Shown: in pieces, positions 25,130 to 25,633 of the stretch
How the letters are laid out: each line of letters opens with the position of its first letter
Position numbering within the stretch: position 1 is the stretch's first letter
Origin: Chiloscyllium plagiosum
Taxonomy: Eukaryota
Reading direction: 5' to 3'
DNA length: 58,094 nucleotides
NCBI RefSeq assembly: GCF_004010195.1
Contig: NC_057758.1
Coordinates: 7,024,524 to 7,082,617, forward strand
Program-made: the position numbers and the translations under genes
Notes under the pieces: model-generated
Seen by the model: only the letters and a program-made list of their open reading frames with translations
Database searches by the model: none
What the model was told of the DNA's origin: nothing

Positions 25130-25633
25130 GCTGTAGAATACGACCCAAGACCGCTGATGTATGTCTATGAGTGGCAATTATGCCAGAGAGCGATAGATTT
25201 AGTCAGCGATTCACTCGCCCTGGAAGCAAGTAACCATGTTAATCCTATTAACACCGATTTTCTTGCTGGAGACATGCTGCACTGCACAGCACACATACAC
25301 CGCGTGGGCCCTTACGAATCATATGAGAAGGATTGCTTCAGGGGATTGGTTAAACCAAATCAGTTATTATTGTGCAAATTTTATTGGAGTGATCGCAGAG
25401 TGATTGCAGTCAGTGTGAACTTATCTAAAGTATCTGTGATGGCAAGTAGACCCGACCTTTAGATGTGGAAAGCTCTTGTCCTCTCGTACCACTGGCAAAG
25501 GCGTCCAGCAACAGGTAGCAGGTTTTGGGAGCATGGGTGCTAAAGTCACAAAGAACGAAAGGTTGGGTATTCAGGAACGAAATGGACATCTTGTTCAATG
25601 CAAATATGTGGGTATATAAAAAGACACTAAATT
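25130..25633 (+). pseudogene. Putative 2H-phosphoesterase-like domain within ERV-A pol, between protease and RT
   Basis: LHCTAH (HxT, 25280-25288). After a frameshift, SCPLVPLAK (25480-25500) is two single-base changes from PHVSLAK (HxS) and is followed by R*QVLGAWV. Confidence 0.6.

Follow-up and report, generated by a model that had tools for sequence, protein, structure and literature searches.

A broken copy of a CNPase-like 2H phosphoesterase domain in the Pol region of a shark endogenous retrovirus

The window examined here, a stretch of 58,094 nucleotides from Chiloscyllium plagiosum (contig NC_057758.1), contains within the pol region of a decayed endogenous retrovirus (ERV) a real, dead copy of a CNPase-like 2H phosphoesterase domain, i.e., a domain of a kind already in print. 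That the domain is a 2H phosphoesterase we regard as close to certain. Judging from its two His motifs and its CNPase-like predicted fold, the domain of which this is a broken copy likely acted on RNA ends or nucleotides by opening their 2',3'-cyclic phosphates, a reading that we hold with fair confidence. The evidence points away from 2'-5' oligoadenylate (2-5A) and towards 2',3'-cyclic phosphates as the substrate. An initial annotation of the window had proposed a 2H phosphoesterase domain within Pol, between protease and reverse transcriptase (RT), and this proposal is borne out by the motifs of sister copies elsewhere in the genome, by one natural reading frame, and by the predicted fold.

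The decayed provirus runs from about 23.5 kb to 28.6 kb of the window, and a second, partial copy runs from 35785 to about 41.1 kb (Table 1). Where the 5' LTR remnant ends, the primer-binding-site-like sequence may resemble a tRNA-Pro site; positions 23407-23519 are 75% alike to 41013-41124, the latter likely being the remnant of the 3' LTR. One 56-residue piece of the gag remnant retrieved no match from Pfam. The 125-base RNase H-like piece occupies the place of the missing N-terminal protease half in both window copies, and this replacement is an internal rearrangement that predates the presumed duplication of the provirus. The order gag, protease, RT, RNase H, integrase, with an MLV-type integrase C-terminus, is recovered from Pfam matches to RVP in a sister copy and to RVT_1, RT_RNaseH_2, Integrase_H2C2, and MLVIN_C in the window, the last two within the second copy. 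Because of its relatives, described below, and of what section 7 of PMC4977317 reports, we tentatively place the ERV among the epsilon-like (class I) elements.

Table 1. Features of the two provirus copies and of the 2H domain, in window coordinates.
Feature	Positions	Strand	Basis
Primer-binding-site-like sequence, end of 5' LTR remnant	23529..23547	+	Sequence
gag remnant, numerous stops and frameshifts	23806..24828	+	79% like upstream part of sister copies; sits between primer-binding site and protease
RNase H-like piece, 125 bases	24829..24953	+	88% like late RNase H region 28097-28221
Protease, C-terminal half; catalytic half absent; internal gap relative to sister copies	24953..25093	+	tblastn to P0003 from residue 118
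CNPase-like 2H phosphoesterase domain and short linker, broken, C-terminal strand cut short	25094..25633	+	Motifs, sister copies, predicted fold
First His motif, LHCTAH, intact	25277..25294	+	His in 26/29 sister copies; begins strand E65-71 of model; LHCT as in host CNP
Frame break between motifs	25459..25462	+	tblastn pieces 24953-25459 and 25462-25632 in different frames
Second His motif position, degenerate (PLVPLAK; motif reads LVP)	25480..25500	+	Sister copies: His 26/29, Ser at +2 26/29
In-frame TAG, second half of domain	25516..25518	+	Sequence
Penelope-type retroelement fragment (GIY-YIG), interrupts provirus	25634..26697	-	Pfam GIY-YIG E 0.033 (under cut-off); similarity to 5608-6564
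RT / RNase H remnant without RT N-terminus	26695..28563	+	Pfam RVT_1 E 0.075, RT_RNaseH_2 E 1.8e-6
Second partial provirus copy, to integrase remnants	35785..41124	+	Shared parts 92-96% like first copy; nearly all of 2H domain missing
End of 2H domain and RT N-terminal region, in second copy	37451..37830	+	Stretch that in sister copies continues past Penelope break

The Penelope-type element that interrupts the first copy is 74% like window positions 5608-6192, and RNA reads from other copies of the element end at both of its borders (25632-25634 and 26697). In one single-cell polyA run, 2% of which was read, the insert was covered and the provirus received almost no reads, and a second run placed none; these runs argue neither for nor against expression. 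The second copy also contains a Penelope piece, at 36984-37449. Positions 2132-2142 of a sister copy map both to 25633 and to 37451, giving an 11-base overlap. In the RT/RNase H part the two window copies are 95% alike, versus 78-86% to 22 other copies. The pair would have arisen by local duplication and reciprocal deletions, unless two haplotypes were assembled side by side. As separate observations, a 500-N assembly gap (35233-35732) parts the copies at 23806-28563 and 35785-41124; the flanks of one Penelope insertion point that the two have lost are complementary, their Penelope pieces are oppositely oriented, and a 151-base copy (28561-28711, 99%) of 27259-27409 stands where the first copy ends on the right.

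Within the first copy, the stop-free frame 24878-25462 reads through the C-terminal half of the protease and then into the intact motif LHCTAH. The second motif position lies 67.7 codons away, out of frame with the first, and is followed by a stop. LHCTAH, PLVPLAK across a frameshift, and the TAG after it had all been reported in the initial annotation and are found where it put them, as is the verdict that the copy is dead: with a degenerate second motif, a frame break, and a stop, it does not keep both motifs whole and is a dead member of the 2H phosphoesterase superfamily. Pfam detected no 2H family in the window frame or in nine natural copies, and no Pfam family matched the shark domain itself (0 for the first member).

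The boundaries of the domain had to be redrawn. The RT had been taken to start at the right edge of the domain (25633); the Penelope-type element begins there, at 25634, and RT sequence, now lacking the N-terminus, is found again from about 26695. The residues FQFSFLLS, read as the end of the protease remnant, lie at 25013-25036 inside the protease, which continues to about 25093. The interval between protease and RT, estimated at about 165 codons, is about 200 codons in an uninterrupted natural copy (P0003), whose protease ends at residue 165 and whose RT presumably starts near residue 365, judging from MLV RT. In the structural model described below, the last strand (E175-194) spans the insertion point of the window copy, and therefore the Penelope insertion also cuts the fold.

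Searching the genome at the DNA level returned 437 candidates, of which 40 were scored and the best 30 fetched, one of them being the window copy; a set chosen as the best 30 of 40 leans towards well-kept copies. When the motifs were mapped on the DNA of the 29 sister copies, the first showed His in 26 copies and Thr/Ser at +2 in 25; in the second, His and the Ser at +2 were each present in 26 copies, and 17 of the 29 kept both motifs whole. A tally at the protein level (23, 22, and both in 16 of 30, counting the window copy) selects incorrect frames where a copy is broken and was dropped in favor of the DNA-mapped one. The initial annotation had taken the second motif to carry a His in the family, and so it does: its presence in the sister copies makes the second His a family trait and the window version a product of decay. 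One sister copy has a natural 561-codon frame that leads from protease (Pfam RVP at residues 76-165 of its protein, P0003) across both motifs to RT-like sequence.

Pairwise dN/dS of the domain over the 29 copies was 0.72 (0.57-0.91) after correction for transition bias (kappa 4.13), alongside 0.62 for the protease and 0.65 for the RT. Five other frames gave 0.74-1.22, and because one of them, a reverse frame, gives 0.74, the signal is only suggestive. It would fit mild purifying selection on the domain, of the size seen for essential enzymes, diluted by neutral decay, and is not decisive. An uncorrected value of 0.47 left the transition bias in place, overstated selection, and was discarded.

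We predicted the structure of the domain from a natural sister copy (196 residues, 80-row alignment), and the model reached a pLDDT of 89.2 and a pTM of 0.84. It is two-lobed, and each motif opens a central strand: His65 and His132 begin strands E65-71 and E132-138, and helix H143-155 comes after the second motif strand. The 2H fold expected by the initial annotation is thus recovered by the model, by Foldseek, and by an independent structure aligner, VIA, run against 48,161 chains. Foldseek retrieved 44 PDB matches at E<=0.001, and all listed rows through rank 47 were CNPase or RICH (TM 0.48-0.61, identity 12-17%). With VIA, CNPase was again best (Z 14.7, rmsd 4.0, 165 residues aligned), followed by prokaryotic 2H enzymes (Z 9.3, 8.7, and 8.3); other viral and cellular 2H proteins comprised Acb1 (Z 8.1), MHV ns2 (7.6), AKAP18/AKAP7 (7.3), rotavirus VP3 (6.6 and 6.2), and the penguinpox cGAMP phosphodiesterase (Z 4.6, rmsd 11.6). 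Going by their titles, we take nearly all of the top 21 VIA rows to be 2H proteins. A sequence profile searched against the PDB likewise placed RICH first (E 0.005), with CNPase chains next (E 0.13-2.1), so that CNPase/RICH (PF05881; PDB 2xmi, 1woj, 2i3e) is the best match by structure and by profile. Single-sequence and shallow-profile searches had retrieved only chance matches in the PDB (a designed repeat protein, PsaK, CD38 at E ~0.1); these miss the His motifs or score poorly and were rejected.

Further searches gave partial recognition. In the ESM Atlas, the domain scored 0.96 to clusters with tRNA_lig_CPD in 11-22% of members and 0.94 to 2H-SAK, with a recognition score of 2093, below the mark of 2300 for strong evidence. 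Pfam tRNA_lig_CPD (PF08302) matched 3 of 80 aligned relatives, the best at E 0.0024 and two at 14-15 bits versus a cut-off of 23, and the Pfam CNPase family PF05881 was not among the 25 families listed for these 80. Among viral models (BFVD) the top three matches were Q2VF30, which we take to be the polyprotein of salmon swim bladder sarcoma virus, and the Env proteins of WEHV-1 (Q9WHI8) and WDSV (A4GTG3); phage Acb1 proteins were the best non-retroviral match (E 3e-4). Going by these models, the same fold seems to occur in Pol of one retrovirus lineage and in Env of another, since the matches in WDSV and WEHV-1 lie in Env whereas that of the shark ERV lies in Pol.

Relatives were found by HMMER with a profile of nine natural copies, which retrieved 113 proteins at E<=0.001 (40 at 1e-10). 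Word-based protein searches had found none, and the HMMER result means that these blanks reflect the method. Both motifs are whole in 51 of the 80 relatives that span both, with His in 65/80 at the first and 76/80 at the second, and the motifs are 59-67 residues apart. Even between divergent relatives, few positions are kept as well as the His and Thr/Ser of the two motifs, and a Gly stands 15 residues after the second His in 58 of 68 relatives and also in host CNP. At least one motif is broken in 29 of 80, and therefore catalysis is not kept everywhere, or those copies are dead. As an observation in its own right, seven relatives that are 36-99% alike (P0013, P0025, P0028, P0030, P0047, P0050, P0067) share a Gln in place of the first His and a Pro within the second motif; from their sequences, this group is possibly a lineage that keeps a catalytically dead domain.

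The domain's place in Pol is shared as well. Pfam searches of 30 relatives, chosen mostly for length, gave a protease match before and/or an RT match after the domain in 27 and both in 6, and teleost ERV Pol proteins carry the domain between protease and RT as the shark ERV does. Organism records for the 30 name a teleost for 16 clusters, bacterial metagenome bins for one (likely host DNA, as we infer), and no organism for 13. The teleosts are Takifugu (twice), Siniperca, Mastacembelus, Cyclopterus, Sphaeramia, Labrus, Paramisgurnus, Astyanax, Trematomus (twice), Metynnis, Hoplias, Scortum, Paramormyrops, and Cottoperca; all of these are teleost genera, as record labels show in part. Every vertebrate-named relative among the 30 looked up is therefore a teleost (16/16), and 14 of the 16 keep both motifs whole. 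C. plagiosum differs from these hosts in being a non-teleost, with OAS genes. One relative, the predicted teleost protein P0099, combines immunoglobulin domains with a zinc knuckle and the 2H domain and may be a gene-model artefact or a host fusion.

The likeness to CNPase extends to details. CNPase/RICH and the retroviral domain share the LHCT first motif, an aromatic-rich first strand, and the Gly 15 residues after the second His. According to passages in PMC4643303, helix alpha7 of CNPase follows the second motif strand and is called absent from other 2H enzymes; helix H143-155 of our model, coming after strand E132-138, corresponds to it by order and spacing. The differences are also clear: the second motif of the retroviral domain is mostly HxS rather than HxT, identity is 12-17%, the N-terminal kinase-like domain of CNPase is absent, and the motif spacing of 59-67 compares with 79 in mouse CNPase (His230 and His309; PMC4643303). 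When the CNPase substrate residues Tyr168, Phe235, Arg307, and Val321 were considered, conserved Tyr/Trp residues in the first strand of the retroviral domain resembled host PYFFGW, and Arg307, two residues before the second His, had no counterpart. Against the host's own CNP, the profile scored 6.8 bits on the exon with motif 1 (best of 500 shuffles, 3.6) and -1.5 on the exon with motif 2, where hhalign also found nothing (0.3%).

On this structural prediction we expect that CNPase-type chemistry was probably performed by the domain. Of the functions offered by the initial annotation, its second, RNA-end processing, is the better option given the CNPase-type predicted fold. The domain would have been made as part of Gag-Pol and thereby packaged inside the particle, where one His would activate a water and the other protonate the 3' oxygen, leaving a 2'-phosphate and a free 3'-OH. 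The benefit to the virus could have been the clearing of cyclic-phosphate ends that host metal-independent RNases leave behind. Such clearing would take away a mark that stimulates immunity, and it could restore a 3'-OH to a nicked primer or genome end. That this clearing was the purpose of the domain is a tentative proposal, to which we give somewhat less than even weight. 2H folds change substrate easily, and most retroviruses replicate without such a domain.

Published work bears on these steps, in the passages that treat them. The CNPase mechanism is set out in PMC4643303; cyclic-phosphate RNA ends are reported in PMC8406329 to stimulate RIG-I, NLRP3, and TLR8 responses; and CNPase can replace the cyclic phosphodiesterase/end-healing domain of yeast tRNA ligase (PMC5434554). 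A predicted cytoplasmic loop of WDSV Env at residues 875-1044, described in a part of PMC3185748, is of a size that fits the domain. If the Env match falls within this loop, then the Pol and Env placements are both inside the particle.

A wider scenario, which we consider doubtful, holds that a CNPase-type enzyme was captured early by fish retroviruses, from a host gene that itself restricts retroviruses, and was kept from cartilaginous to bony fish, and that the domain moved between Pol and the inner loop of Env as it must ride inside the particle. There it would destroy an immune signal made of nucleotides, be it cyclic-phosphate RNA ends, 2',3'-cyclic nucleotides, or cGAMP. If true, this would amount to a virion-packaged innate-immune antagonist enzyme in retroviruses.

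Another alternative is that the domain degraded a cyclic dinucleotide messenger, e.g., 2'3'-cGAMP, and blunted cGAS-STING sensing of reverse-transcribed DNA. Teleosts keep cGAS-STING, so that the host range would fit, unlike that for 2-5A; the shark genome has a cGAS-like exon (E 5e-12); and Acb1 is the best non-retroviral viral-model match (E 3e-4) with a Z of 8.1. Acb1 and the poxvirus cGAMP phosphodiesterases do carry the 2H fold in viruses, but Acb1 lies 6.6 Z units below CNPase and the penguinpox enzyme, at Z 4.6 and rmsd 11.6, far below it, and we judge this reading unlikely.

The fold could instead be mainly non-catalytic, an RNA- or Gag-binding module and possibly a decoy against host CNP, which we think improbable. 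CNPase inhibits lentivirus assembly by binding Gag, according to a passage of PMC5434554 citing Wilson 2012; CNP is interferon-stimulated, as stated in part of PMC3832489; the shark has a CNP gene of its own; and the seven relatives whose first His is replaced by Gln and whose motif 2 contains Pro keep the domain. In most lineages, however, the best-kept His and Thr/Ser of both motifs point to catalysis.

The lead option of the initial annotation, that the domain cleaved 2-5A and blocked OAS-RNase L as coronavirus ns2 and rotavirus VP3 do, is disfavoured, and on the structural models we hold it to be highly improbable. MHV ns2, MERS NS4b, rotavirus VP3-CTD, and AKAP7 share the 2H fold and its two His-x-Thr/Ser-x motifs, and the viral 2',5'-phosphoesterases are, like the retroviral domain, a host-type enzyme in an RNA virus; ns2 (Z 7.6), AKAP7 (7.3), and VP3 (6.6) fall within the same superfamily. 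These enzymes reach a Z of only 6.2-7.6 against 14.7 for CNPase, which fits about 7 Z units better, and neither an AKAP7-like structure nor AKAP7-like descent was found for the retroviral domain, whereas the viral 2-5A enzymes descend from AKAP7-like genes according to PMC10835031 in the part concerned. The hosts argue in the same direction. Most named relatives come from hosts without OAS-RNase L: 16/16 vertebrate-named relatives are teleost, 14/16 with motifs whole, and a passage of PMC10400998 reports that OAS-RNase L was lost in the ray-finned ancestor; the walleye viruses with the fold also infect ray-finned fish. Since ray-finned fish lack the pathway on this account and their retroviruses nevertheless keep the domain, 2-5A is unlikely as a general substrate; this loss in the hosts and a fold that is not of the AKAP7 type are what tell against the reading.

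The shark itself is less clear-cut, and PMC10400998 also describes, in a passage, a cartilaginous fish whose OAS-RNase L pair works. The initial annotation had called for a check of host OAS and RNase L. The OAS part of it succeeded, with 15 OAS1_C exon matches among 24 candidates, most of them clustered on contig C25; RNase L was not identified by our exon-by-exon search, which is insensitive, and the clear Ribonuc_2-5A matches were IRE1-like. About three OAS-domain genes lie in the cluster at C25:15317927-15378388. An 865-codon frame with a faint match is not RNase L and resembles a very large GTPase by its motifs. It lies at the C37 locus (252-3935), where it adjoins a frame of 361 codons across one stop, the two together being very-large-GTPase-like by motifs.

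That the motifs are chance, or the stretch a neutral passenger useless to the virus, is scarcely credible: the window copy is broken, its frame has no Pfam match, word-based protein searches were blank, and selection among host copies is modest, but 113 HMMER relatives, a position within Pol that is shared by many fish genera, and a 2H model of high confidence stand against it, and a chance origin of the motifs is refuted by these relatives, the sister-copy motif tally, and the structural match.

The preferred reading, a 2',3'-cyclic phosphodiesterase inside the particle, concerns a kind of domain that earlier work had noticed. As the initial annotation stated, 2H domains have been noted in fish retroviruses before: section 21 of PMC9503650, citing Mazumder 2002, gives them for certain retroviruses including WDSV, and section 7 of PMC4977317, citing Basta 2009, reports CNPase or macro domains encoded by some epsilon-like ERVs in ray-finned fish, described there as 'additional open reading frames'. 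These 2H/CNPase-like domains of fish retroviruses are of the same kind as ours and likewise occur in epsilon-like viruses. That section mentions no such domain for sharks. Our literature search, which took in main texts and few subscription papers, found no functional test of the fish-retroviral domain and no report of it in a cartilaginous fish. A term look-up in PMC8672886, PMC12690878, and PMC3185748 found no mention of a phosphodiesterase, and PMC10835031 does not mention retroviruses in the part concerned. The activity of the domain would tell whether an enzyme that heals RNA ends or clears immune signals can be part of a retrovirus, and the domain might inform the physiological substrate of vertebrate CNPase, which a passage of PMC3290555 calls still unknown.

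Two further features of the window lie outside the provirus. On the minus strand at 44912-45979 is an intronless 355-codon frame with a rhodopsin-family seven-transmembrane match (E 1.9e-10). Also on the minus strand, at 54473-55350, an 84-base tandem array yields a run of C2H2 zinc fingers with eight in-frame stops, and this is a decayed zinc-finger gene.
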